Shown here: positions 18,334-28,762 of the stretch, one piece after another
Numbering within the stretch: position 1 is the stretch's first letter
Layout: each line of letters begins with the position of its first letter
Source: a phage
Sequence record: PZ445448.1
Strand: one strand, 5' to 3'
DNA length: 64,000 nt
Translations under genes and position numbers: made by a program
Notes under the pieces: model-generated
What the model was told of the DNA's origin: nothing
What the model saw: the letters and a program-made list of their open reading frames with translations, nothing else
Database searches by the model: none

Positions 18334-19815
18334 TTACTTAGCGTACTCGATTAATTCCACAGTTTTCCCAAAGCTCGGGATATAATTTTTATTATATCCC
18401 TCAGTGAGGACCCATAGAGTATCGTACTTTTTCCACTTGTTGTCAACAGCCTTTTGTTCAAAGTTATGCTCAAAGTATAGGTCGGTCAGGACGATGACAT
18501 CTTTTGCATTTGGTATGTTGGCATCCAGATACTCGAACACGCAAGCAGCTGTTGTGCCCCATGTTGAGTGGACCTCATAGTTGATCATCTCGTCTATGTT
18601 GCCGCGAGTGTATACTTTAACCTCTCCAACCTCAGTTGACCAACAGAACATTGTAACCTTAAACTCTTTATACAGATTGCACAATCCGGTGATTTCATTG
18701 AACATTTTCTTTAAAGTTCTTTGAGAGATCGAGCCAGAAACGTCTAAAGCTACAACAATATCTATGGTGTTTTCCGGATTACGACCAGGAACAATAACGT
18801 GCTGGTTCTTGTTTATAGCCCCAACTTTTCGCATTGTGCTGGTCAAAGACCCAGATCGGCGACCAGGTTTTCTGTAGGTCAGTTCAGCCTTTCGTTTAGA
18901 CAACATGCGTTGCTTAATGATGTCTATATAGTTGATTACAGGCTTACCCCTGTTCTTGACAAACTCACGCACCGCCTCAGGGCAACGACCTCCGGAAGCT
19001 TGCATTGCTGCTTCCAGCATGTCACCAGAGTCTTGCATGGCCTGATCTTTATCAGATTGGCTGATTACAGGTTGTGGCTGATCATACCCCATAGCCTTTC
19101 TAAGATCATCGCTGGTGCCACCGTTCCCGCTCATGTGATCATCGGTTTGTCGCTTATCTCCTTGAGAATTCTCACCTTTGCCGCTCTTACTTTTACCGTT
19201 ATTCTGATCTCTTTGCTTATCAAGAACTGCATAGACGTTCTCAGCAATCCATCCATGAAACTTCATGTCGCAGTAGCAACTAGCTAAGAAGCCAAAAGGC
19301 TTACCTTTTACGAACTCAGTGCTTTTCCCCTTCGGGAAGAAAACACAAGGAGGCTTGCTAAAGTCAACCACAAGACCTGTGTTGATAACGTGATCACAAG
19401 CAATATTGAACAGTTCCGGCTCAAAGCTTTTACCACGGACCAGGTGATCACAGATAATATGCCCCACCTCATGTGACAGAAGGAAGGCCACCTCTTTCAC
19501 AGATTTTGGGGAATAGAAAACTTCAGCCATCTCAAACTGCTCGTCAGTTAGAGAAGCCTTAAGAATAGCCTTGCGTTCATCAGCCAATCCCATAATGAAC
19601 TCAGGACTGTAATAGATGCGTTTATGGTCGGTTGCCATGGTGGAGCACCATGTGTGGTTTTCTACGAACTGCAACCCTGACAGTAGTGTGCCATAAAACG
19701 GCAGCTTTTCAAGGAGATACATACGTGCAGCCTGCAACATTCTCAGGGCATCATCTTTCTGTGAGGCAATGATTTCTGAACTTCTGCTATCCATTAAAAC
19801 TCCAGAAGGGGCCAT
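18334..19815 (-). CDS. VWA-domain protein with N-terminal HExxH metallopeptidase-like domain (DUF2201-type)
   Basis: HExxH motif LLSHEVGHIICDH; C-terminal MIDAS-like IDIVVALDVSGSIS; RBS GGGGG; this architecture typically partners MoxR ATPases. Confidence 0.65.
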   Translation of the reverse strand: MAPSGVLMDSRSSEIIASQKDDALRMLQAARMYLLEKLPFYGTLLSGLQFVENHTWCSTMATDHKRIYYSPEFIMGLADERKAILKASLTDEQFEMAEVFYSPKSVKEVAFLLSHEVGHIICDHLVRGKSFEPELFNIACDHVINTGLVVDFSKPPCVFFPKGKSTEFVKGKPFGFLASCYCDMKFHGWIAENVYAVLDKQRDQNNGKSKSGKGENSQGDKRQTDDHMSGNGGTSDDLRKAMGYDQPQPVISQSDKDQAMQDSGDMLEAAMQASGGRCPEAVREFVKNRGKPVINYIDIIKQRMLSKRKAELTYRKPGRRSGSLTSTMRKVGAINKNQHVIVPGRNPENTIDIVVALDVSGSISQRTLKKMFNEITGLCNLYKEFKVTMFCWSTEVGEVKVYTRGNIDEMINYEVHSTWGTTAACVFEYLDANIPNAKDVIVLTDLYFEHNFEQKAVDNKWKKYDTLWVLTEGYNKNYIPSFGKTVELIEYAK

Positions 19816-19828
19816 TTGCCCCCTGTCA

Positions 19829-20869
19829 TTATTTAACGTGTTTGAAAATACCTGCCAACTCGGTCATTGTCATGCGGGTGGTCTTCATAAGATCTGTCAT
19901 AGCTTTCTCCATAATTGGAGATACTACCATAAAGTTTCCTTTAGTGAAACCTTTATTCCAGTCGGTCACCAACAGTGGTTTAAGTCCAGCTCCGAGACGT
20001 TCACCAGTTAAAGCACAGCATTTGCGAATATACGAACTCTTAAATTGGCTGAACGACAGATCAACTTTCATACCTGCATCGTAGAACGTTTGACAATAGA
20101 AAGTGTAAGCCTTAGCAATCTCAACATCATCAGGCAGTGCAGGAACCTCTTCTGCAATCCCCTCTTCGACCTCCTGAGGCTCTTTTTCCTCTTCAGAGTT
20201 CTGTTCTTCAACTTCTTCTGTCACAGTCTCGTTCACGATGTCTGAAATGTGTTTGTTGGCTGCACGATCAGCCATGAAATTTTTAAAGTCCTGCATTGGT
20301 GACATATCTTCTTCCTCTTCGTCAAATAGTGCTAGTTTATCTTCTTCTGTCCCGTATTGCAAGATGAAATCTTCAAAAGTATAATCACCTTTCAATTTCT
20401 CCATACGCTCTTCGCTCAGGTGGAGCATCATCTGCTGGACAATTTTTCGATCAGTTTTGTCTTTAATCAGGATTGCAGTCTTTTTATCTACCAGACAGTC
20501 TTTCAGAGCATTGCACCTCAACCCTACCACACAACAATTGTCAATTGCGTAAGGACCTTCATCATCTATACGCTCCAAAGATGGGTAGAAAGGATTCCCC
20601 AGCCCGTTTTCATCTGTGTGCATGTCAAAAGGTATAAGGGTATAGTCGCATACTCCATCTCCTAAAAGTTTTTTACCAAATAGGAGGTATTCTTCCCATG
20701 ACAGGTCGAACTCTATATCTCGTTTCCGTGCGTTATTCTGTTTGCGTCTATATTTTTTGAGCAAGCGCTCTAACTCTTCTGGTGTATAATATTTTTCAAG
20801 ATTCATGAGTCGTCTCTCGTGCTCTGTAAGTGAAGAAATCGTATCAATTGTCTCAACAGATGTCAACAT
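19829..20869 (-). CDS. hypothetical protein with acidic central region
   Basis: Start at ATG 20869 (second codon of the TTG-initiated track ORF); long Glu/Asp-rich stretch; first gene of the minus-strand operon. Confidence 0.5.
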   Translation of the reverse strand: MLTSVETIDTISSLTEHERRLMNLEKYYTPEELERLLKKYRRKQNNARKRDIEFDLSWEEYLLFGKKLLGDGVCDYTLIPFDMHTDENGLGNPFYPSLERIDDEGPYAIDNCCVVGLRCNALKDCLVDKKTAILIKDKTDRKIVQQMMLHLSEERMEKLKGDYTFEDFILQYGTEEDKLALFDEEEEDMSPMQDFKNFMADRAANKHISDIVNETVTEEVEEQNSEEEKEPQEVEEGIAEEVPALPDDVEIAKAYTFYCQTFYDAGMKVDLSFSQFKSSYIRKCCALTGERLGAGLKPLLVTDWNKGFTKGNFMVVSPIMEKAMTDLMKTTRMTMTELAGIFKHVK

Positions 20870-20879
20870 CAAAAACGTG

Positions 20880-20908
20880 TTGACTTTACTCTAACTCCAC
20901 AATATAGT
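20880..20908 (+). promoter_or_regulatory. sigma70-type promoter (TTGACT-17-TATAGT)
   Basis: TTGACT at 20880-20885, 17 nt spacer, TATAGT at 20903-20908, upstream of 20949 gene. Confidence 0.5.
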
Positions 20909-20948
20909 GCACCCATTCGAAAGAAAACTAACATAGGAGCACTTACTT

Positions 20949-21848
20949 ATGGCAAATCTTAACAGTTTTAGTACGCGGTGGAAACAGGACATAACAACCA
21001 ATCTTTCAGCTGGGGACATCCTTTCTGCAATTTACGAGGATTTAGATGCTAAAGCTACTTCAAAAGCGGTTTGTACCAACCCACTAATTCCTATAGTGAT
21101 GAAGGTTATTGAGCGTAGATTGGTATCTGGGTCTGATAAGTGGACATATTTAGATAATGAAGGACACACCTATTCCAATGGGTACGTCGATATAAAAGTA
21201 GAATACGCGGTATCATACCGCCGGAGCGGTTCTGTAACTTTCAACTTCTCTGGAGGTTTTCGATCTCTGGCTACCTCACCTTTTGTTTCCTCAGAGGAGA
21301 AGTATGAGCTGCCATTTCTTTGGATGATGGCTAACGCGACAGGAAAAACCCCCGTTAGCATCCGAGTAAAATACAACTACAACGGATCTAGTAAGATCTA
21401 TGCCGAAAGTGTCTCAGCAAGTTTTTATTTTGTGATGGGGGATGGAATCCTCAAACATATAAAGATGTGCGATATGCATGATGTTATAAATGAAGTGACT
21501 GATAAGAATGTTCTAGTGAAAGACCTCAACAATTTTTATACACCCGGAGACTATTACGTCAGCCGTCCACTGTGCATCTTTAATGCCGCACACCCTCTAG
21601 GTGAGTATTTGATCGCCAATAGCGATATTGCCAATAACCGCTTCGAGGTAGCAAGAGTTCAGAATGAGGTATTGACATCTTGCAAGAGCGGTGATAAGTT
21701 TACCGAAGAAGAGATGGGTGTTTTAGAAATGATGGGATATAAGTGTAGCCTTTGGGTAGATGAGGTGTTTAATGATTGCATCTATGGACAGGATATTTAC
21801 CCATTAAAGAAGTATACTGATACAAGTTTAATTTATGCGAGGGTTTGA
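20949..21848 (+). CDS. hypothetical protein (299 aa)
   Basis: ORF after promoter; RBS ACATAGGAGCA. Confidence 0.55.
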   Translation: MANLNSFSTRWKQDITTNLSAGDILSAIYEDLDAKATSKAVCTNPLIPIVMKVIERRLVSGSDKWTYLDNEGHTYSNGYVDIKVEYAVSYRRSGSVTFNFSGGFRSLATSPFVSSEEKYELPFLWMMANATGKTPVSIRVKYNYNGSSKIYAESVSASFYFVMGDGILKHIKMCDMHDVINEVTDKNVLVKDLNNFYTPGDYYVSRPLCIFNAAHPLGEYLIANSDIANNRFEVARVQNEVLTSCKSGDKFTEEEMGVLEMMGYKCSLWVDEVFNDCIYGQDIYPLKKYTDTSLIYARV

Positions 21849-21850
21849 CT

Positions 21851-22123
21851 ATGATGAAGGCATGTGGTAATGTATATTACGTCGGTGAACATGTTCAGGC
21901 AGACAGTGTGTGGAAATCTATTAAGTCCACCACTGACGATGCCTTTCTGAGTGGACTATGTTTCCCCAATCCGGGAGACATCCTCCCTCATCCTGGAGAT
22001 TTTGTTGTCAACAAGATGGACGGTTATACCGTGTGCCTGATGGTTGAAAAAATCTTTTTAGACACTAGACACAATCACCGTCTTGTGTTAAAATTTCAAG
22101 AATGTAAAATGACAATTGCCTAA
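21851..22123 (+). CDS. hypothetical protein (90 aa)
   Basis: ATG 7 nt after GAGGG. Confidence 0.5.
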   Translation: MMKACGNVYYVGEHVQADSVWKSIKSTTDDAFLSGLCFPNPGDILPHPGDFVVNKMDGYTVCLMVEKIFLDTRHNHRLVLKFQECKMTIA

Positions 22124-22136
22124 GGAGACCTTACCG

Positions 22137-22493
22137 ATGTCTAAAGTTACTTATCGTGCAGCTATTTACTGCAATGAACACCCAATCAATAACGATGGTC
22201 ACTGCCTTTTTAAAGAAAATCAGTTGGGATGTATTGTCCTCCCTGATGAAGGGAAAGGTTATCTGATTGCATTGACAGGGTTTGAACCTGAAGCTCTGGA
22301 AGCCAATCTGGACTACCTGGTAGAAGAGGGTGCTGCAGACCTGGTTGCCAATGGCTTCTCCATAAGCCTTGACGAAGTGGAGCGCTTCATGGGCAATTAC
22401 CGTGTAGTGCGTGAGTTTACTATCGAGGTGGAAACTCCAGAGTGGGGTAGCCATGAAACTAATGCCGAAGAAAAAGAAGAGGAGGTAGAATAA
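22137..22493 (+). CDS. hypothetical protein, acidic C-terminus
   Basis: ATG after CTAAGGAGACC. Confidence 0.5.
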   Translation: MSKVTYRAAIYCNEHPINNDGHCLFKENQLGCIVLPDEGKGYLIALTGFEPEALEANLDYLVEEGAADLVANGFSISLDEVERFMGNYRVVREFTIEVETPEWGSHETNAEEKEEEVE

Positions 22494-22750
22494 TGAAAGT
22501 GCAGATCTTGACTAATGCCGAGAAGATGTTTATTGAAGATACACCTTTTGAAGCTGGTGAGCTACAGTTCATTTATTTTGTTGACTTAGATAAGGTGTTC
22601 CCTGCACTGAATCTTGGTCTGGATGAAGTTCCTCATAAGGTTTTGTGCCAAGTTGTTCGTGCATTAGCGGCAGATGGGGAGTTCCACACCCTTGAAGATG
22701 TCCAGACCTACGGGTATCTTGAACTACAACGAGAAGAAGAGGTGGACTGA
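22493..22750 (+). CDS. hypothetical protein (85 aa)
   Basis: ATG after GAGGAGGTAGAATA; overlaps previous stop. Confidence 0.5.
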   Translation: MKVQILTNAEKMFIEDTPFEAGELQFIYFVDLDKVFPALNLGLDEVPHKVLCQVVRALAADGEFHTLEDVQTYGYLELQREEEVD

Positions 22751-22752
22751 TA

Positions 22753-23133
22753 ATGGCCCTGTGGAAGACAACAGTTGACCTTCATGATCAGTGGTTAGGA
22801 CGCATCACTGAAGACGGGAAGCTAGTGGAGTGGGACAATAAGCATGTTAGCGAGTTGGCAAGTATTGTGGCTGGCAAGTTACGCTCCAAGTTCCCTGAAC
22901 AACTGGATCCTGATAGTTCAAAGTTCGATCCTGAGTTGGAGGATGTTGTATACTACTTCGACACCGTTGATGACTACGACGCGTGGTTTGCAGCACAGGA
23001 GCTTTACCCACAAGGCTCTGCTATGCGCCAGATGGAAGAAGATTATCCTCCGTGTGAGCAATTCAACAGTGCAATGACTTGCCTCTATGATTGGGCAGAT
23101 AAGAACCTTGTCTGGATTCGGACCGTATTCTAG
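22753..23133 (+). CDS. hypothetical protein (126 aa)
   Basis: ORF tightly packed after previous gene. Confidence 0.5.
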   Translation: MALWKTTVDLHDQWLGRITEDGKLVEWDNKHVSELASIVAGKLRSKFPEQLDPDSSKFDPELEDVVYYFDTVDDYDAWFAAQELYPQGSAMRQMEEDYPPCEQFNSAMTCLYDWADKNLVWIRTVF

Positions 23134-23148
23134 CAGGTAGTGGCAAGG

Positions 23149-23442
23149 ATGCCACTTAAAAGAGTAATAAACATGTTATACCAGCAATATGAACTTCGTG
23201 CAGAAAAAGAGTTAAATTTTGACAAAGATATTCACAGATATTATTATGGGAAAGTTAGAGGGCAAGCAAGAAAGTGTACTCCAACACTCTTTTATGCCAG
23301 CAGACGACTAGCGCCAGAAGAGGCAACAGCAGAAAGGGTTGCATACAACTGGGAAGTTGTGTACGATATTGACAGATCCGATGTGATATCTGTTTTGGAA
23401 AACTTTGAAAACACTTACACACAAGTAGAGGACTTTTACTAA
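23149..23442 (+). CDS. hypothetical protein
   Basis: Start uncertain (ATG 23149 or 23173); ends in TAATG overlap with the ATPase gene. Confidence 0.4.
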   Translation: MPLKRVINMLYQQYELRAEKELNFDKDIHRYYYGKVRGQARKCTPTLFYASRRLAPEEATAERVAYNWEVVYDIDRSDVISVLENFENTYTQVEDFY

Positions 23443-24626
23443 TGTCAAGAAACGTATTTGAAAGTGGTCAAATCACTGTCCGTGAGTTGCCAGCTATCAT
23501 TCAGTTTGCCCAGCGTCATAACCGATCTGTCCTGATTTTAGGACCAATGGGTGTGGGAAAGAGTCAGGTGATGAAGCAGATCGCTGATAATATGTTCGGT
23601 GAGCGAGATGACAACCTGGTTGACGTGCGGCTGTCAGATAAAGATCCTGCCGACTTATCTGGGCTACCTATCCCTGTAGAAGCGGATGGGACTACACGTA
23701 CAGTGTTTGCAATCCCAGAATTTTGGCCTGCGGATCCTGACTGGAGCGGAATTGTCTTTCTGGATGAGCTCACTCATGCAGATAACTACCTGCAAAAGGT
23801 TGCAATGCAGATTATGCTCGACCACAAGTGCGGCACCTATGCATTCCCTAAGGGCTCTGTTTTTGTAGCTGCAGGTAACCGTTCTACAGATGGTGCTGTT
23901 CTTTCGGCGCTCGAAGCCCCTCTGGCTAACCGCTTTATCATTGTAGAAGTTACAAGCAACGCAGAGGTGTTTATTGAGGACTACGCATTCCTTAATGGGG
24001 TGCACTCCTCTGTAATTGGATATCTGAAAAGAGTTCCATCAGCTATTGATAATTATGAGGCCATGGCTGAGATTAATTGTCCATCTTTTGCCACACCGCG
24101 ATCTTGGGTTGCTGCATCTGATATCTTGCACGATTTTGACAGCGGTATTATTTCTGACGCTATGGCCCGTGTTCTTCTACAAGGTGCTATTGGTCACACT
24201 GCAGCGGTAGAGATCTGGACTTACCACACCAAGAAACGCAACTTACCGGAAATCGGTCGGATTATGGCAGGAGGTTGCAAAGAATACGTAGGCCCTAAAC
24301 AGCCAGACATCTTGTGGATTCTTGGATCTGAAGGTTGTATCGCTATTCGTAATATGATGGAAAATGCAAGTATCTCCGACGAAGATCTTGTTAGCTGTGT
24401 GGCAAACTTCCTCGATTTCCTTTGGGAAAACTTCAAGGACGAGAACCGAGATTTTGTATTCTCAGTCTTTATGGCGATGATGAAACCTAATGCCTTAGGA
24501 AATGCCTTGCTTATCGGTAAAGGGCGTGACAAGATTGTTGCTCAGCTGATCAAAGCATACCCAAACCTGATGAAGATTGTAAAAGAGTTTGGTGAAGAGT
24601 TTAGCGCCATTTTGGCTAAAGCTTAA
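23442..24626 (+). CDS. MoxR-like AAA+ ATPase
   Basis: Walker A ILGPMGVGKSQV; Walker B IVFLDELTHA; size (394 aa) fits the MoxR/CobS class. Confidence 0.7.
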   Translation: MSRNVFESGQITVRELPAIIQFAQRHNRSVLILGPMGVGKSQVMKQIADNMFGERDDNLVDVRLSDKDPADLSGLPIPVEADGTTRTVFAIPEFWPADPDWSGIVFLDELTHADNYLQKVAMQIMLDHKCGTYAFPKGSVFVAAGNRSTDGAVLSALEAPLANRFIIVEVTSNAEVFIEDYAFLNGVHSSVIGYLKRVPSAIDNYEAMAEINCPSFATPRSWVAASDILHDFDSGIISDAMARVLLQGAIGHTAAVEIWTYHTKKRNLPEIGRIMAGGCKEYVGPKQPDILWILGSEGCIAIRNMMENASISDEDLVSCVANFLDFLWENFKDENRDFVFSVFMAMMKPNALGNALLIGKGRDKIVAQLIKAYPNLMKIVKEFGEEFSAILAKA

Positions 24627-24636
24627 GGGGGGTTGT

Positions 24637-25017
24637 ATGGCTAAAGTAGGTAAGCGGGGAAACTACCTGGTGGTATTGACCGAGGAGCCGGAGAAGGAGT
24701 ACGAATGCAGCTCCACTTGCGTGATCGATATCCGAGAAAAAGATGTAGATGAAGTCTGGTTTAAAATATTGGACGCTTGCGATAGCAGTGATTATTTCTT
24801 CATCTATGTCAACGATAAGGCTGGGTTCTTCCATGACGACGGAGAGTTGCCGTATGAAATCTATGAACTTGTAGAGGCTTGCCATCGTGGAGATGCGGAG
24901 TTGTTTGGCTTACGGCTGAAAAGCGGTAAATTCTTCTATCAAGATGAGTGCATGAATCTTCATAACTTTGTAGAGGGAACTTGCAACGATGGAGAGATTT
25001 TGGCACACTACGATTAA
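24637..25017 (+). CDS. hypothetical protein (126 aa)
   Basis: ATG after AAGGGGGG. Confidence 0.5.
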   Translation: MAKVGKRGNYLVVLTEEPEKEYECSSTCVIDIREKDVDEVWFKILDACDSSDYFFIYVNDKAGFFHDDGELPYEIYELVEACHRGDAELFGLRLKSGKFFYQDECMNLHNFVEGTCNDGEILAHYD

Positions 25018-25027
25018 TTTCTAAGAC

Positions 25028-25056
25028 CTCCCCCGCTTCGGCGGGGATTTTCTATT
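25028..25056 (+). terminator. rho-independent terminator
   Basis: CCCCCGC-ttcg-GCGGGG followed by ATTTTCTATTT. Confidence 0.5.
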
Positions 25057-25066
25057 TGGAGTTATT

Positions 25067-25567
25067 GTGAAAATTAAGATCTTTGCTATTATTTTGAGCG
25101 CATTTTTATCGCTGCCTGTTGTTGCAGCACCAAAACAAAAAGTATACCATACTTGCAAGCCATCAGATACTAAGGAAAACATTCTAGCATGCAATATCTA
25201 CAGGGAAGCTAGAGGGGATGGCACGATGGGTATGCTGGCATCTGGGTTTGCCACCCTAAACAGGAAATCTCACCCCAAATACCCAGACACCATAAGAAAG
25301 ATTGTCTACCAACCTAACCAGTTTTCGTGGACAAACCACGGCAAAACTTTTAAGGTGACAGAAAAAGATTCATGGGATCACGCTAAAAGTCTTGCAAAGA
25401 TGCTTCTAAAGGTCTATAATAACAACCATGTTGCATACATGGCTATGGACATAACAGGTGGAGCAACACACTACCATACAACCAAAGTACGACCGAAATG
25501 GGCAAAAAAGATGCAGAGGACAGCTCAATTCGGGAGTCATATCTACTACAAGGAGCGCAATAAATGA
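25067..25567 (+). CDS. secreted SleB-type cell wall hydrolase
   Basis: GTG start; N-terminal signal-peptide-like KIKIFAIILSAFLSLPVVAAP; motif YREARGDG...LNRKSHPKYPDTIRKIVYQPNQFSW typical of the SleB/CwlJ hydrolase family. Confidence 0.65.
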   Translation: MKIKIFAIILSAFLSLPVVAAPKQKVYHTCKPSDTKENILACNIYREARGDGTMGMLASGFATLNRKSHPKYPDTIRKIVYQPNQFSWTNHGKTFKVTEKDSWDHAKSLAKMLLKVYNNNHVAYMAMDITGGATHYHTTKVRPKWAKKMQRTAQFGSHIYYKERNK

Positions 25568-27546
25568 TTGTAAACAGTAATGAAACTAAAGCAGTACTAA
25601 CCGGAAATATGGAGGTCACCAGGGGCTCAATTTCTCTGAACAAAGAGACTTTTGGGCTAATCATTAAAGGGATTTACGAAGATAAGGTGCTGGCAAGCTG
25701 CCGTGAACCAATCTTCAATGCTGTGGACTCTCATGTTGAGTCTGGACGGGGTGATGTACCGATCATCATTCACTCCCCTACAGACCTTGAACCATACTTC
25801 TTTGTGCAGGACGTTGGATTGGGTATGTCAGAAGAGATGGTCCGCAACACTTTCATGAACCTCGGGGAGTCAACCAAGCGCAACAGCAACGCTCTGGTAG
25901 GTAATAAAGGTGTAGGTTCAAAGGCCCCGTTCAGCATGGTGGACACTTTCGATGTGATTAGTGTGCACAACGGTGTTGAAAGCACATATCTATTGTTCTT
26001 GGATCAGGGTATCCCAAACGTTACCAAGATCCGCGAGCGGAAGACTGAAGAGCACAACGGGGTAAAAGTTCAGTTCCATGTTAAGAAAGAGCATGTCCTG
26101 AAATATCGCACTGCTATTGCATCGTGCTTACGCTATGCGAAGTTTCCGTTCATCGTCACCGATCCCATGACCAGTAAGATGTTAGAAGGTGACAAGGTTG
26201 AGGCACAGTATCATTACGAGAAGGATGGCTGGAAAATGACCATCCTGAAAGGTTATACCAGTTCTGATGAGAGCCGTGTTGTGATGGGTCACCAACCTTA
26301 CCGCTCCAAGTTCCTGGAGACATTGACCGATTACCCTGCAATCTGCGTGGAAATTCCTATTGGGGATTGCAATATTAACCCTGGGCGTGAATGGACCATA
26401 GAGGGCCATGACGACGGTGGATTCCAGGATCGCCTGGAGGCATTTGTCAAAGAAGGTATACGTCTTCGCGGGGCAGAAGTTGTTGCAGAACTGGAGACGG
26501 CAAAAACCTCCGCAGAAGCACGTGAAATGATGAAGAATAGTGGAGTGTTCGGACACATCTTCGGCAAGAACTTTATGTGGAACCGTTGGGAAGAAACAGG
26601 GCTTGGCGACTTAGGCGATTGTGAAATTTTCGCTGGCGGCTTAAATAAAGGCCGCATAGGTTATGCTTGTTACGGAAAGTCGGAGTTCTTACGAGGTGTA
26701 TACCTTGTATTTAACGACGGAGACGGCAAATATAACCGGAATAAGTGTAACTACTTAAGCGAGATCACCGGACGCAACGTTTTCTATTGCCGGAACACGG
26801 ATCTGGTGAAAGAGTTTAAAGAGGCGGCACACCATCCGTTCTTTGCAGATACGGTCAAATTGTTATCGGAGCTTCCACGCCGACCTGCGAAGAAAGGTGA
26901 AACCAAAACTCGTTACGAGCCAGGCTACTGGGTTAAGAAGCTTAGAGAGGATGGCTACTTCCATCGTGAGCGCCTCACGAAGGCAGAGTTCAAGAAGATT
27001 AAGCATTGCATCCCTTATGAGGGGGATATCCAACGGGGAAGCTGCTGGCTGGGCCAGATGAGTAACATCTACCAGCAAAATTATGACCGTGTGCGTGCTG
27101 CACTCCAGATTCCTGAAGGTGAAGATCTGTACCTGGTATCAGAATCTCGTCTGCTTTGGACTGATCCTGATTGCCAGTATGTTACAGAGAAGAATGTGGA
27201 ACATTTGTTGAAAGAGGATGCTTGGAAATTCTTACTGACTCGCGCAGCAAATGAAACTTCATATGACAGCCTGTATAGACAATTAGGGAAAATTATCCCC
27301 ATGCAGGATTTTGGAAATTATCGGCCACATTTCCACAAGTGGGAAGGTAACACCGCGTGGAAGCACAGTGAGCTAAATCATCGTGCCAAAATCTTAATCG
27401 CCAACCGGGTTAAGTGCGGGAAGGCCTATATTGCAAGATTGGAAAAGAAATATCCACTTTTGAAACATGTGGGCTTGAAATATTGGGACACTCCTGCTAT
27501 GATTGAATACCGTGAACTGATCGATACAAAGAATAACATCAAATAA
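25564..27546 (+). CDS. GHKL-family (Bergerat fold) ATPase, rIIA-like
   Basis: N box REPIFNAVDSH, G1 box VQDVGLGMS, G2 box GNKGVGSKAPF; 660 aa; phage rIIA proteins carry this fold. Confidence 0.6.
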   Translation: MIVNSNETKAVLTGNMEVTRGSISLNKETFGLIIKGIYEDKVLASCREPIFNAVDSHVESGRGDVPIIIHSPTDLEPYFFVQDVGLGMSEEMVRNTFMNLGESTKRNSNALVGNKGVGSKAPFSMVDTFDVISVHNGVESTYLLFLDQGIPNVTKIRERKTEEHNGVKVQFHVKKEHVLKYRTAIASCLRYAKFPFIVTDPMTSKMLEGDKVEAQYHYEKDGWKMTILKGYTSSDESRVVMGHQPYRSKFLETLTDYPAICVEIPIGDCNINPGREWTIEGHDDGGFQDRLEAFVKEGIRLRGAEVVAELETAKTSAEAREMMKNSGVFGHIFGKNFMWNRWEETGLGDLGDCEIFAGGLNKGRIGYACYGKSEFLRGVYLVFNDGDGKYNRNKCNYLSEITGRNVFYCRNTDLVKEFKEAAHHPFFADTVKLLSELPRRPAKKGETKTRYEPGYWVKKLREDGYFHRERLTKAEFKKIKHCIPYEGDIQRGSCWLGQMSNIYQQNYDRVRAALQIPEGEDLYLVSESRLLWTDPDCQYVTEKNVEHLLKEDAWKFLLTRAANETSYDSLYRQLGKIIPMQDFGNYRPHFHKWEGNTAWKHSELNHRAKILIANRVKCGKAYIARLEKKYPLLKHVGLKYWDTPAMIEYRELIDTKNNIK

Positions 27547-27556
27547 GGAGACCAAG

Positions 27557-28762
27557 ATGATTTTCATCTACGAACATTTCAAAACCCGTAAAGAAGCACG
27601 AGACCGCCGTGCAGAACTTGAGAAGAAGGGTTTCACATGTGCCATTGAGAAAGGCGACACAACCTGGACACTGGCAGTTGGTGCCCCAGAGTTGTTCGAT
27701 CCTGACCGTGACAGCGTCTGCTACACCCGTGAGGATTTTGAAACCCGCGAAGAGGCCCGTTTATTTCGATACGGTCTGGAAGATAACGGTAAGTACGCTA
27801 TGATCTTAGATTTAGGCGAAGGTTCCGTTAAACGTTGGGGCGTGGTATACCCACTGTGTGTTGTTCACGGTGTGGGGTTCACTGGGGTAGCAATCAAGTC
27901 AGAAGAACCTTTAGTAGAAGTCAAAGATCCGGTGCTGGAGGTGGTGAGCAGTGTGTCTCAGCAACAGACTCGAAGCATCGAGCCTTTGGTAGTTATTTGT
28001 GGGGAACTCCTCCAGATCACCTGCAACGAAGGCATTTTTGAAATTCGCCGCAGCGAAAGTGAGGAAGTTTACCAGAAAGTCTTCGACCATATCTCTGTTC
28101 AGGAATATGATGAGGCAATTGGTGAAATCCTTGTCTGGCTGGAACGCAAGAATGAGTTCACCACACTTGCAGACAACCTGATCATGAAAGATGGTAAGCT
28201 CTACTACTACGGTGTAGAGATGCGATCCACCATTGCAAAGAAAATTGAGAAAGATTATGCAGACGGAACGCTGGATGACCGCTATGTGAAATTCCTCGTT
28301 CGCCTGCTACGCAATCCTTCTGCAAAATCTGTAAACATGCTCTACGATTTTATGCAGGCCAACGATATCCAGATTGCAGAAGATGGTCGAATCATTTGCT
28401 ACAAAGGGGTTCAGTTTAACGGCAGCAAGTGGGTAGATTGGCACAGTGGTAAAGTTCCACAATACCAGGGTGCTTTTGTATCCATGCCTCGTAACTTTGT
28501 AGAGGATGATCCGGAAGCTGCGTGCTCCTATGGCTTACACTGCGCCAGCAAAGAGTATGCAAAGAGCTACGGCACTGTAATGACTGTCATGGTTGACCCT
28601 GCAGATGTGGTTAGTGTGCCATACCAACACAATAGCGCCAAGTGCCGTGCATGCCGCTATGAGATTGTGGTAGCTCCGGAAGCACGCAAAGATGGAGACC
28701 CTATTGAATATGTAGTTGATCGTGACGGTAACACTATCGACATTCTTTACGAGGAGGCGTAA
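27557..28762 (+). CDS. hypothetical protein with N-terminal internal repeat (rIIB-like by position only)
   Basis: RBS AAGGAGACC; two repeats FKTRKEARDRRAELEKKG / FETREEARLFRYGLEDNG; directly after GHKL ATPase. Confidence 0.45.
   Translation: MIFIYEHFKTRKEARDRRAELEKKGFTCAIEKGDTTWTLAVGAPELFDPDRDSVCYTREDFETREEARLFRYGLEDNGKYAMILDLGEGSVKRWGVVYPLCVVHGVGFTGVAIKSEEPLVEVKDPVLEVVSSVSQQQTRSIEPLVVICGELLQITCNEGIFEIRRSESEEVYQKVFDHISVQEYDEAIGEILVWLERKNEFTTLADNLIMKDGKLYYYGVEMRSTIAKKIEKDYADGTLDDRYVKFLVRLLRNPSAKSVNMLYDFMQANDIQIAEDGRIICYKGVQFNGSKWVDWHSGKVPQYQGAFVSMPRNFVEDDPEAACSYGLHCASKEYAKSYGTVMTVMVDPADVVSVPYQHNSAKCRACRYEIVVAPEARKDGDPIEYVVDRDGNTIDILYEEA

Follow-up and report, generated by a model that had tools for sequence, protein, structure and literature searches.

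In group 2.2 jumbo phages, a pair has been described in which a MoxR ATPase is accompanied by a VWA protein bearing a metallopeptidase domain at its N-terminus (Iyer et al. 2021, PMC7824862). Among viral MoxR-VWA couples, only p618 (MoxR) and p892 (VWA) of the Acidianus two-tailed virus (ATV) have a role backed by experiment, namely in extracellular tail development (PMC7159879, PMC7824862). In the NorQ-NorD system the VWA domain of NorD is docked in the ring formed by NorQ, into whose pore it sends a finger (PMC13036017). In phage N4, gp24 and gp25 are middle transcripts, and are found among the 14 N4-like core genes (PMC4193335); in phage rV5, gene 4 was listed in 2013 as 'MoxR - ATPase' and gene 12 as 'CHP, PF13203 DUF2201_N' (PMC3606486). 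The corresponding pair is described here in a 64,000-nucleotide stretch of phage DNA (record PZ445448.1), hereafter the window, to which all positions refer unless another locus is named. It consists of a MoxR-type AAA+ ATPase (23442-24626, plus strand) and of a protein, the partner, where a zincin-like domain is joined to a VWA domain (18334-19815, minus strand). The two are probably subunits of one conserved machine, with an early or middle intracellular role on a phage or host protein.

More than 100 Vequintavirus genomes, including rV5, FFH2, navn and the BASEL isolates JeffSchatz and MaxBurger, match the 7.1 kb around the pair at 97-98% identity; by this similarity, the source phage is a Vequintavirus, an rV5-like coliphage. 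Both open reading frames (ORFs) lie exactly where the initial annotation had placed them, on opposite strands as it reported, and the distance of about 3.6 kb given there measures 3,626 nt. They are real genes, not chance ORFs, as they are conserved in more than 100 phage genomes; the record of phage navn labels them 'ATPase (MoxR ATPase)' and 'metallopeptidase'. Sixteen unannotated 'Campylobacter phage' records (host Campylobacter jejuni), within MG065646-MG065682, are also 97-98% identical, over the 7.1 kb, to Vequintavirus from E. coli: their host labels look doubtful.

Comparative genomics strongly supports the view that ATPase and partner form a functional pair, despite the divergent units in which they are encoded. 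Of 80 IMG/VR loci retrieved with the ATPase profile, 69 are informative: all of them contain both genes, and in 67 the partner is directly downstream of the ATPase, on the same strand. The other two feature the split, divergent arrangement: one (L009) is of this phage type, the other (L010) is a 53%-identical relative. The remaining loci either end at a contig edge (10) or carry an inserted gene before it (1). The picture is the same for the 79 cellular loci, where the partner is found downstream, on the same strand, in 77, while the other two are cut by contig ends. The gene order of the window is thus not the canonical one, in which the genes are adjacent and co-oriented, and among these loci it is shared only by L009 and L010.

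Adjacency, with the ATPase followed by the partner, is also observed in the Sulfurivermis fontis chromosome, in an N4-like roseophage and in cyanophage S-TIM5; on metagenomic phage contigs, a gene featuring DUF2201_N and DUF2201 domains lies directly downstream of distant homologues of the ATPase. The pair is adjacent and co-oriented also in Cronobacter phage CR3, like the window phage a member of the subfamily Vequintavirinae. The N4 pair, recognized by searching with the family profiles (hmmsearch E 8.1e-61 and 4.5e-83), corresponds to gp24 and gp25. In PA5oct (locus L170, 5079-10265) the two genes are on one strand, and between them lie three small genes and the gene for a putative homing endonuclease of 498 aa; this is a second, independent interruption of the operon. 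By tblastn, both genes are found in the same phage groups, namely Vequintavirinae, Rak2/GAP32-like and other jumbo phages, PA5oct and N4-like phages; tblastn and hidden Markov model (HMM) searches add the K64-1-like jumbo phages. With the partner-protein profile, 33,382 cluster representatives (50% identity) are retrieved at E <= 1e-3, and 14,723 at E <= 1e-30.

The divergences of the two proteins are correlated: the mirror-tree r is 0.964 over 140 loci and 0.906 over 22 divergent representatives (Mantel p <= 0.001). They stay matched also within the split lineage (53% and 48% identity). The partnership of a MoxR ATPase with a VWA protein, which the initial annotation had proposed, is therefore sustained by near-obligate adjacency elsewhere, by the mirror-tree correlation (r = 0.96) and by the folds reported below. 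Because of the gene order seen across viral and cellular loci, an operon with the ATPase followed by the partner is taken as the ancestral state, and the split found in Vequintavirus as derived. In this lineage the ancestral operon would have been rearranged by the move of the partner across back-to-back promoters of early type. The breakpoints of the rearrangement are not definable, as the genes flanking the pair in CR3 bear no similarity to those flanking the window ATPase. Scanning with NCBIfam and PADLOC produced no meaningful family or defence-system match for the pair, and there is therefore no evidence of its being a known anti-phage or anti-defence system.

A number of other genes are found around the pair in phages and bacteria. 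On one environmental phage contig (L036, 2961-3983), which ends before any partner gene appears, a 340-aa gene with a CxxxCxxC motif resembling that of radical S-adenosylmethionine enzymes directly follows the ATPase, in the usual place of the partner. Among the cellular loci (L096-L161), 28 of 79 carry, right after the pair and on its strand, a conserved gene that codes for about 380 aa and matches nothing in Pfam (e.g. L112 10089-11243; L005 7297-8409), its place being taken by Hsp33 in about eight loci of Thiobacillus type. This third gene was considered as a shared client or cofactor, and rejected, since no homologue is present in the window or in phage loci. In Sulfurivermis, Hsp15 and thioredoxin precede the pair, and a ferrochelatase is found near the operon; in S-TIM5 (L008, 4477-7112) a small heat-shock gene, Hsp20, is immediately upstream of it. 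Hsp20 in S-TIM5, along with the bacterial Hsp33 and Hsp15 neighbours, hints at a connection with proteostasis. Among the cellular homologues retrieved, those from chemolithoautotrophs that oxidise sulfur or iron predominate.

The ATPase (394 aa) is the orthologue of rV5 gp4, and belongs to the N4 gp24 family and to phrog_1297 ('ATPase', E 2e-110). The Walker A and B motifs, already noticed in the initial annotation, are part of a complete AAA+ catalytic set on the plus strand: Walker A, GPMGVGKS, at residues 34-41 (23541-23564); Walker B, D108-E109 (23763-23768); sensor-1, N146 (23877-23879); the Arg finger, R164 (23931-23933); sensor-2, P219-R220 (24096-24101). In alignments spanning Vequintavirinae, environmental phages, one N4-like phage and bacteria, the whole set, from G34-S41 to P219-R220, is invariant across 29-30 homologues; R147, which follows the sensor-1 residue, is kept as well, and seven positions of the helix-2-insert region (P69, D71, G74, A90, P92, P96, P99) are also invariant.

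The AlphaFold2 model of the ATPase has a predicted local distance difference test score (pLDDT) of 84. Its best Foldseek matches in the PDB are NorQ, CbbQ2, cso-CbbQ and CHU_0153, all of them MoxR proteins, and the NorQ matches include complexes of NorQ with the VWA protein NorD. Secondary structure assignment by DSSP places in the model a beta-hairpin (75-90) between beta2 and the Walker B strand, corresponding to the helix-2 insert, and short strands (129-134) ahead of the sensor-1 strand, where the MoxR clade is expected to feature a pre-sensor-1 hairpin. When PDB chains are searched with the single sequence, only matches at the level of the P-loop are obtained, while the best sequence match of the family profile is Midasin, of AAA_5 type (E 5e-10). 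Homologues at about 35% identity (E ~1e-45) carry matches to AAA_3, AAA_5 and bpMoxR, some flagged as weak. The assignment to the MoxR clade is made because of these matches of the homologues, of those of the model and of the profile match to Midasin; sequence and model together confirm the protein as an intact MoxR-type AAA+ ATPase.

The partner (493 aa) is the orthologue of rV5 gp12/13, and belongs to the N4 gp25 family and to phrog_1314. Its true start is probably the ATG at 19794 (GGAG-N5-ATG), which gives a protein of 486 aa, matching database entries. The HExxH metallopeptidase-like domain and the C-terminal VWA/MIDAS (metal-ion-dependent adhesion site) domain, which the initial annotation had seen in it, correspond to two Pfam families of the DUF2201 group, present in N-to-C order and both above gathering score: DUF2201_N (PF13203, 'putative metallopeptidase'), with E 1.4e-28 and 100.7 bits against a cut-off of 23.2, and DUF2201 (PF09967, 'VWA-like'), with E 2.8e-11 and 44.1 bits against 26.4. 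The motifs are HExxHxxxxH (H115-E116-x-x-H119-x4-H124; 19444-19473) and, for the MIDAS, DxSGS (D358-x-S360-G361-S362; 18730-18744), GT (G420-T421; 18553-18558) and TD (T444-D445; 18481-18486), all on the minus strand. Across 33-34 diverse homologues, H115, E116, H119, H124 and the full MIDAS set do not vary, nor do A139 and D141 of an A-x-D motif; a TYxRPxRR segment (residues 314-321) is conserved as well.

The AlphaFold2 model of the partner (pLDDT 84) features a helical N-domain, a linker and a compact VWA domain. The linker, disordered and rich in Gly and acidic residues, spans residues 205-250 approximately, with a low-confidence segment at 209-234. The C-terminal domain has the VWA fold, its structural matches being the VWA domain of NorD, BatB, integrin I-domains and the Rea1 MIDAS. 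For the N-domain, profile matches to Peptidase_M48, SprT-like proteins, minigluzincin MJ1213 and BepA/HtpX, weak but recurrent, coincide at the HExxH helix. Searching PDB chains with the single sequence of the partner gave no match; the profile version gave weak matches to integrin, minigluzincin and M48.

Two further observations concern the partner gene. The rV5 reference record (DQ832317, 7700-9260) has one T more than the window at about 18546, just past the codon of the MIDAS residue Thr421. This extra base splits the gene into ORF12 (441 aa) and ORF13 (81 aa), while the gene is intact in all other genomes examined; it may go back to a sequencing mistake made long ago, or the VWA domain may really be truncated in the laboratory strain. 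On the minus strand, a G+C-rich hairpin, AGGGGGCAAATGGCCCCT (19807-19824), lies between the stop codon of the preceding gene and the partner start at 19794, and overlaps another in-frame ATG further upstream, at 19815; an effect on read-through or on translation is possible.

The partner is the second gene of a leftward unit, and the ATPase the seventh of a rightward one. The first leftward gene, immediately upstream of the partner (19829-20872, minus strand), is rV5 gp11, a Srd-like 'anti-sigma factor' gene, the product of which has PHROG matches to Srd and to a decoy of sigma70. It is conserved in L010 at 40% identity; the start in L010 aligns to residue 22-23 of the window protein, and the real start is probably the ATG at 20807. 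This gene is reported as context, a role as a component of the machine not being demonstrated. The six genes that precede the ATPase (rV5 gp10-gp5; 20949-23442, plus strand) have no Pfam matches and fall in PHROGs of unknown function; they are not conserved with the pair elsewhere, and gp5 is not conserved in either L010 or CR3. The last of the ORFs ahead of the ATPase, of 100 aa (23140-23442, plus strand), has a stop codon overlapping the ATPase start (ATGA). Labelled 'ATPase' in some records, it was considered as a third component, and rejected, as it is not conserved outside Vequintavirus and has no domain match. The ATPase is followed by one small gene, a strong terminator-like hairpin and then SleB, rIIA, rIIB and a helicase.

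The two units are separated by back-to-back sigma70-like promoters (20838-20908), recognized by consensus scan and by sequence: TTGACA-17-TACGAT, with an extended -10 TG, leftward (20866-20838, minus strand), and TTGACT-17-TATAGT, rightward (20880-20908, plus strand). Both -35 boxes are held within a palindrome, GTCAACA-N9-TGTTGAC (20862-20884), which could be a shared operator or simply reflect the symmetry of the promoters. Bidirectional promoters have been reported between rV5 genes 10 and 11 (PMC3606486), in agreement with the site in the window. The hairpin downstream of the ATPase (25031-25046, plus strand), a consensus match of the terminator scan with six G-C pairs and a T tract, resembles an intrinsic terminator; the promoter-proximal stretch of the rightward unit likely ends there. 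The best sigma70 consensus match of the region (TTGACA-17-TATTAT, 11/12) is located elsewhere, at 23219-23247, inside the 100-aa ORF and about 195 nt upstream of the ATPase start, and could be an internal promoter for the ATPase. The order ATPase (with or without the partner), rIIA, rIIB, one or two genes and helicase is common to N4 (L169, 939-13001) and to the window (23442-28762 and beyond), which suggests an old early/middle module, shared by Schitoviridae and Vequintavirinae.

Some labels found in public records for these genes seem to lack support. 'HNH endonuclease' is attached to phrog_1314, the family of the partner, and to phrog_3118, the Srd-like one, and has spread into RefSeq and GenBank. 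It concerns 18334-19815 and 19829-20872 in the window, as well as N4 gp25 (L169 2165-3307), S-TIM5 gp056 (L008 5964-7112) and PA5oct gp144 (L170 9081-10265). No HNH domain is found by Pfam in either of the two window proteins, and the label looks like a propagated misannotation. In the rightward unit, 20949-21848 is a 'putative alpha 1-3 fucosyltransferase' in many records: it has no Pfam match and matches only a PHROG of unknown function, and its L010 equivalent is barely similar. This annotation, too, appears unsupported.

Gene integrity, motif invariance, folds, obligate genomic linkage and promoter-like context, as computed here, are compatible with a mechanism that may be drawn by analogy with NorQ-NorD, CbbQ-CbbO and Midasin. 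The ATPase would assemble as a hexameric ring, onto which the VWA domain of the partner would dock. The metal site of the MIDAS would then grip an acidic side chain of a client protein, whose existence we infer; by hydrolysing ATP, the ring would pull or twist partner and client, and so remodel the latter. Finally, the fused Zn site, HExxHxxxxH, would cleave the client or act on it otherwise. Cleavage, and hence a two-subunit AAA+ metalloprotease, is suggested because the whole HExxHxxxxH motif, catalytic Glu included, is invariant. ATPase and partner are probably still co-expressed in the window, since their genes flank the back-to-back early-type promoters.

As to time and place, remodelling or proteolysis within the cell, at early or middle times, is favoured over maturation of the virion, on the basis of gene position, of the timing known for N4 and of virion proteomes. 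In other phages the pair sits among genes for nucleotide metabolism and replication; in the window it adjoins the Srd-like gene, upstream of rIIA, rIIB and helicase, all of them genes of early/middle type. Neither gp4 nor gp12 is among the 19 proteins identified by mass spectrometry in rV5 virions, and homologues of N4 gp24/25 are not among the virion proteins of RPP1 and RLP1. The cellular homologues, in turn, have housekeeping genes around them and lie outside prophages; in some cases Hsp33, Hsp15 or thioredoxin is a neighbour.

Several results weigh against this interpretation as a whole. The HMM search proposed with the initial annotation succeeded for the DUF2201/VWA part, as reported above, but not for AAA_5: taken alone, the window ATPase scores below the Pfam cut-offs, both for AAA_5 (16.4 bits vs 22) and for bpMoxR (15.8 vs 27), and does not attain the gathering score of AAA_3 either. 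The N-domain of the partner is not placed by structure search, where VWA matches dominate, and is a putative peptidase by its HExxH motif, by the label of its Pfam family and by weak profile matches. The mirror-tree correlation is equally expected from mere vertical co-inheritance. Promoter and terminator calls are consensus matches, and their number in the region is not above chance (18, with 13.4 +/- 4.0 expected). The mass spectrometry of rV5 virions, with its 19 proteins, is shallow. Finally, the record of the PA5oct ATPase is flagged 'ESI-MS/MS' (electrospray ionization tandem mass spectrometry), indicating detection in particle preparations; the particle list of this phage comprises 93 products, seven of which are 'virion-unrelated enzymes' according to its authors.

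The detection in PA5oct particles is among the points in favour of a different role, that of a chaperone and protease for virion assembly, where the pair would aid the folding and assembly of structural proteins during morphogenesis, and their proteolytic processing. Such a role has been proposed in print for jumbo-phage pairs of this architecture, on the model of ATV p618/p892 (PMC7824862), and a viral precedent exists in the Acidianus two-tailed virus. The status of core genes in N4-like phages is compatible with an essential morphogenetic role, and in S-TIM5 the Hsp20 gene adjoins the pair. Yet the genes are located in regions of early/middle type (anti-sigma, rII, helicase, nucleotide metabolism), and not in structural modules; N4 gp24/25 are transcribed as middle class; the virions of rV5 and of RPP1/RLP1 yielded neither protein; the operon also abounds in bacterial chromosomes devoid of phage structural genes; and the PA5oct particle list, as mentioned, contains enzymes considered unrelated to the virion. 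On balance, a role in virion assembly is rather unlikely, and virion maturation is the least favoured of the three roles put forward in the initial annotation, the others being cofactor loading and manipulation of a host complex.

A more specific form of the early/middle intracellular role may also be considered. The pair would be a split AAA+ metalloprotease of large virulent phages (N4-like, rV5-like, Rak2-like and others), which, in early to mid infection, captures one specific host protein through its MIDAS and cleaves it. The target could belong to the transcription machinery, or else to a defence or stress system. Stated in such detail, the proposal is a long shot; if true, the pair would be a widespread and essential device for host takeover, and the move of the partner next to the Srd-like gene, under early promoters, would reflect this function.

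The alternative that the two proteins act as a chaperone inserting a metal cofactor into a phage or host metalloenzyme, like NorQD (Fe), CobST (Co), BchID (Mg) and CoxDE, reads the same active site in another way: HExxH...H would hold a metal for delivery, and not catalyse proteolysis. The closest solved relatives, NorQ/NorD and CbbQ, belong in fact to the MoxR subgroup for metal insertion or active-site remodelling, the invariant His and Asp residues suit metal binding equally well, and the Sulfurivermis operon has a ferrochelatase nearby. No conserved metalloenzyme gene, however, accompanies the pair in phages or bacteria, where the only recurrent extras are the protein of about 380 aa and Hsp33, and no obvious client metalloenzyme is found in the N4-like core gene set. 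Moreover, the catalytic helix of the N-domain looks like that of zincin peptidases (M48, SprT, minigluzincin), with an invariant catalytic Glu. Metal insertion is accordingly considered very improbable.

That the two genes are functionally unrelated in this phage, being independent after the split or one of them decaying, with a resemblance that is only historical, is hardly credible: they do lie on opposite strands, 3.6 kb apart, and the rV5 frameshift inside the VWA domain, if real, would make the partner dispensable in the laboratory, but that frameshift comes down to one surplus base in one old record, more than 100 Vequintavirus genomes and the split lineage of L010, at 50% divergence, have kept both genes intact with all their catalytic residues, the divergences of the two proteins remain matched in that lineage, and all 69 informative viral loci hold both.

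Part of this picture was already known: the components are annotated, the type of pair was described for jumbo phages in 2021, and N4 gp24 and gp25 are listed as core genes. In the literature, no paper was found linking rV5 gp4 with gp12. New is the recognition, from sequence comparison, that the versions from rV5, N4, jumbo phages, cyanophages and bacteria are one obligate two-gene module, made of a DUF2201 protein and of its cognate AAA_5-type ATPase; new are also the description of the Vequintavirus arrangement as a derived split, and the contextual evidence on the role. The pair is an ordinary example, rearranged in its gene order, of a module already known, though without a characterised function. 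This module is very common: its genes are core genes of N4-like phages, and occur in large lytic phages of several unrelated groups as well as in many bacteria that are chemolithoautotrophs. As it is one shared unit, results obtained in tractable systems, such as N4 or the BASEL Vequintavirus isolates growing on E. coli K-12, are transferable. The analysis corrects misleading annotations; for the window itself, it adds little beyond the rearranged gene order.

A comparison with the known systems shows what is shared with each of them. The jumbo-phage pair of Iyer et al., with ASV44729.1 and ASV44728.2 as examples, has the same architecture as the window pair, to which it is likened by description; the window phage, in contrast, is a non-jumbo myovirus of 136-140 kb, with the two genes split on opposite strands, and the proposal of virion assembly is not favoured by the context evidence reported here. 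N4 gp24 (AAA+ ATPase) and gp25 (vWFA protein), from Schitoviridae, are homologous to the window pair, with HExxHxxxxH and DxSGS kept at an identity of about 20-27%, and in both phages rIIA, rIIB and helicase are found a few genes downstream. In N4, however, the genes are adjacent, co-oriented and transcribed by the phage middle RNA polymerase, while those of the window are split, behind sigma70-like promoters. The ATV couple, likewise compared by description, comes from an archaeal virus, is virion-associated and includes a VWA protein without a peptidase domain.

More distant systems share the logic rather than the components. FtsH, and Cdc48/p97 with Wss1/SPRTN, couple an AAA+ unfoldase or remodeller to an HExxH metalloprotease, and are functional analogues of the window pair; FtsH and Cdc48/p97 belong to the classical AAA+ clade, not to MoxR, and neither system is known to have a VWA/MIDAS adaptor. 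In Midasin/Rea1 an AAA ring works with a MIDAS that grips the client, and the Rea1 MIDAS is among the structural matches of the partner VWA domain; Midasin, however, has its six AAA modules fused into one giant polypeptide, which has no peptidase domain and acts in ribosome biogenesis. NorQ and CbbQ are the best structural matches of the ATPase (Foldseek E ~2e-8; template modelling score ~0.65 on the target), at a sequence identity of 16-21%, and the NorD VWA domain is among the matches of the partner. NorD and CbbO, on the other hand, are much larger than the partner and have no zincin domain, and a pore-entering 'finger', as in NorD, was not identified in the model. The clients of NorQD and CbbQO, nitric oxide reductase and Rubisco, are encoded near them, whereas the surroundings of the pair, in the window as in related loci, hold no nor or cbb genes. 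By analogy, the pair described here may work like NorQD and CbbQO, but is not a member of those systems.

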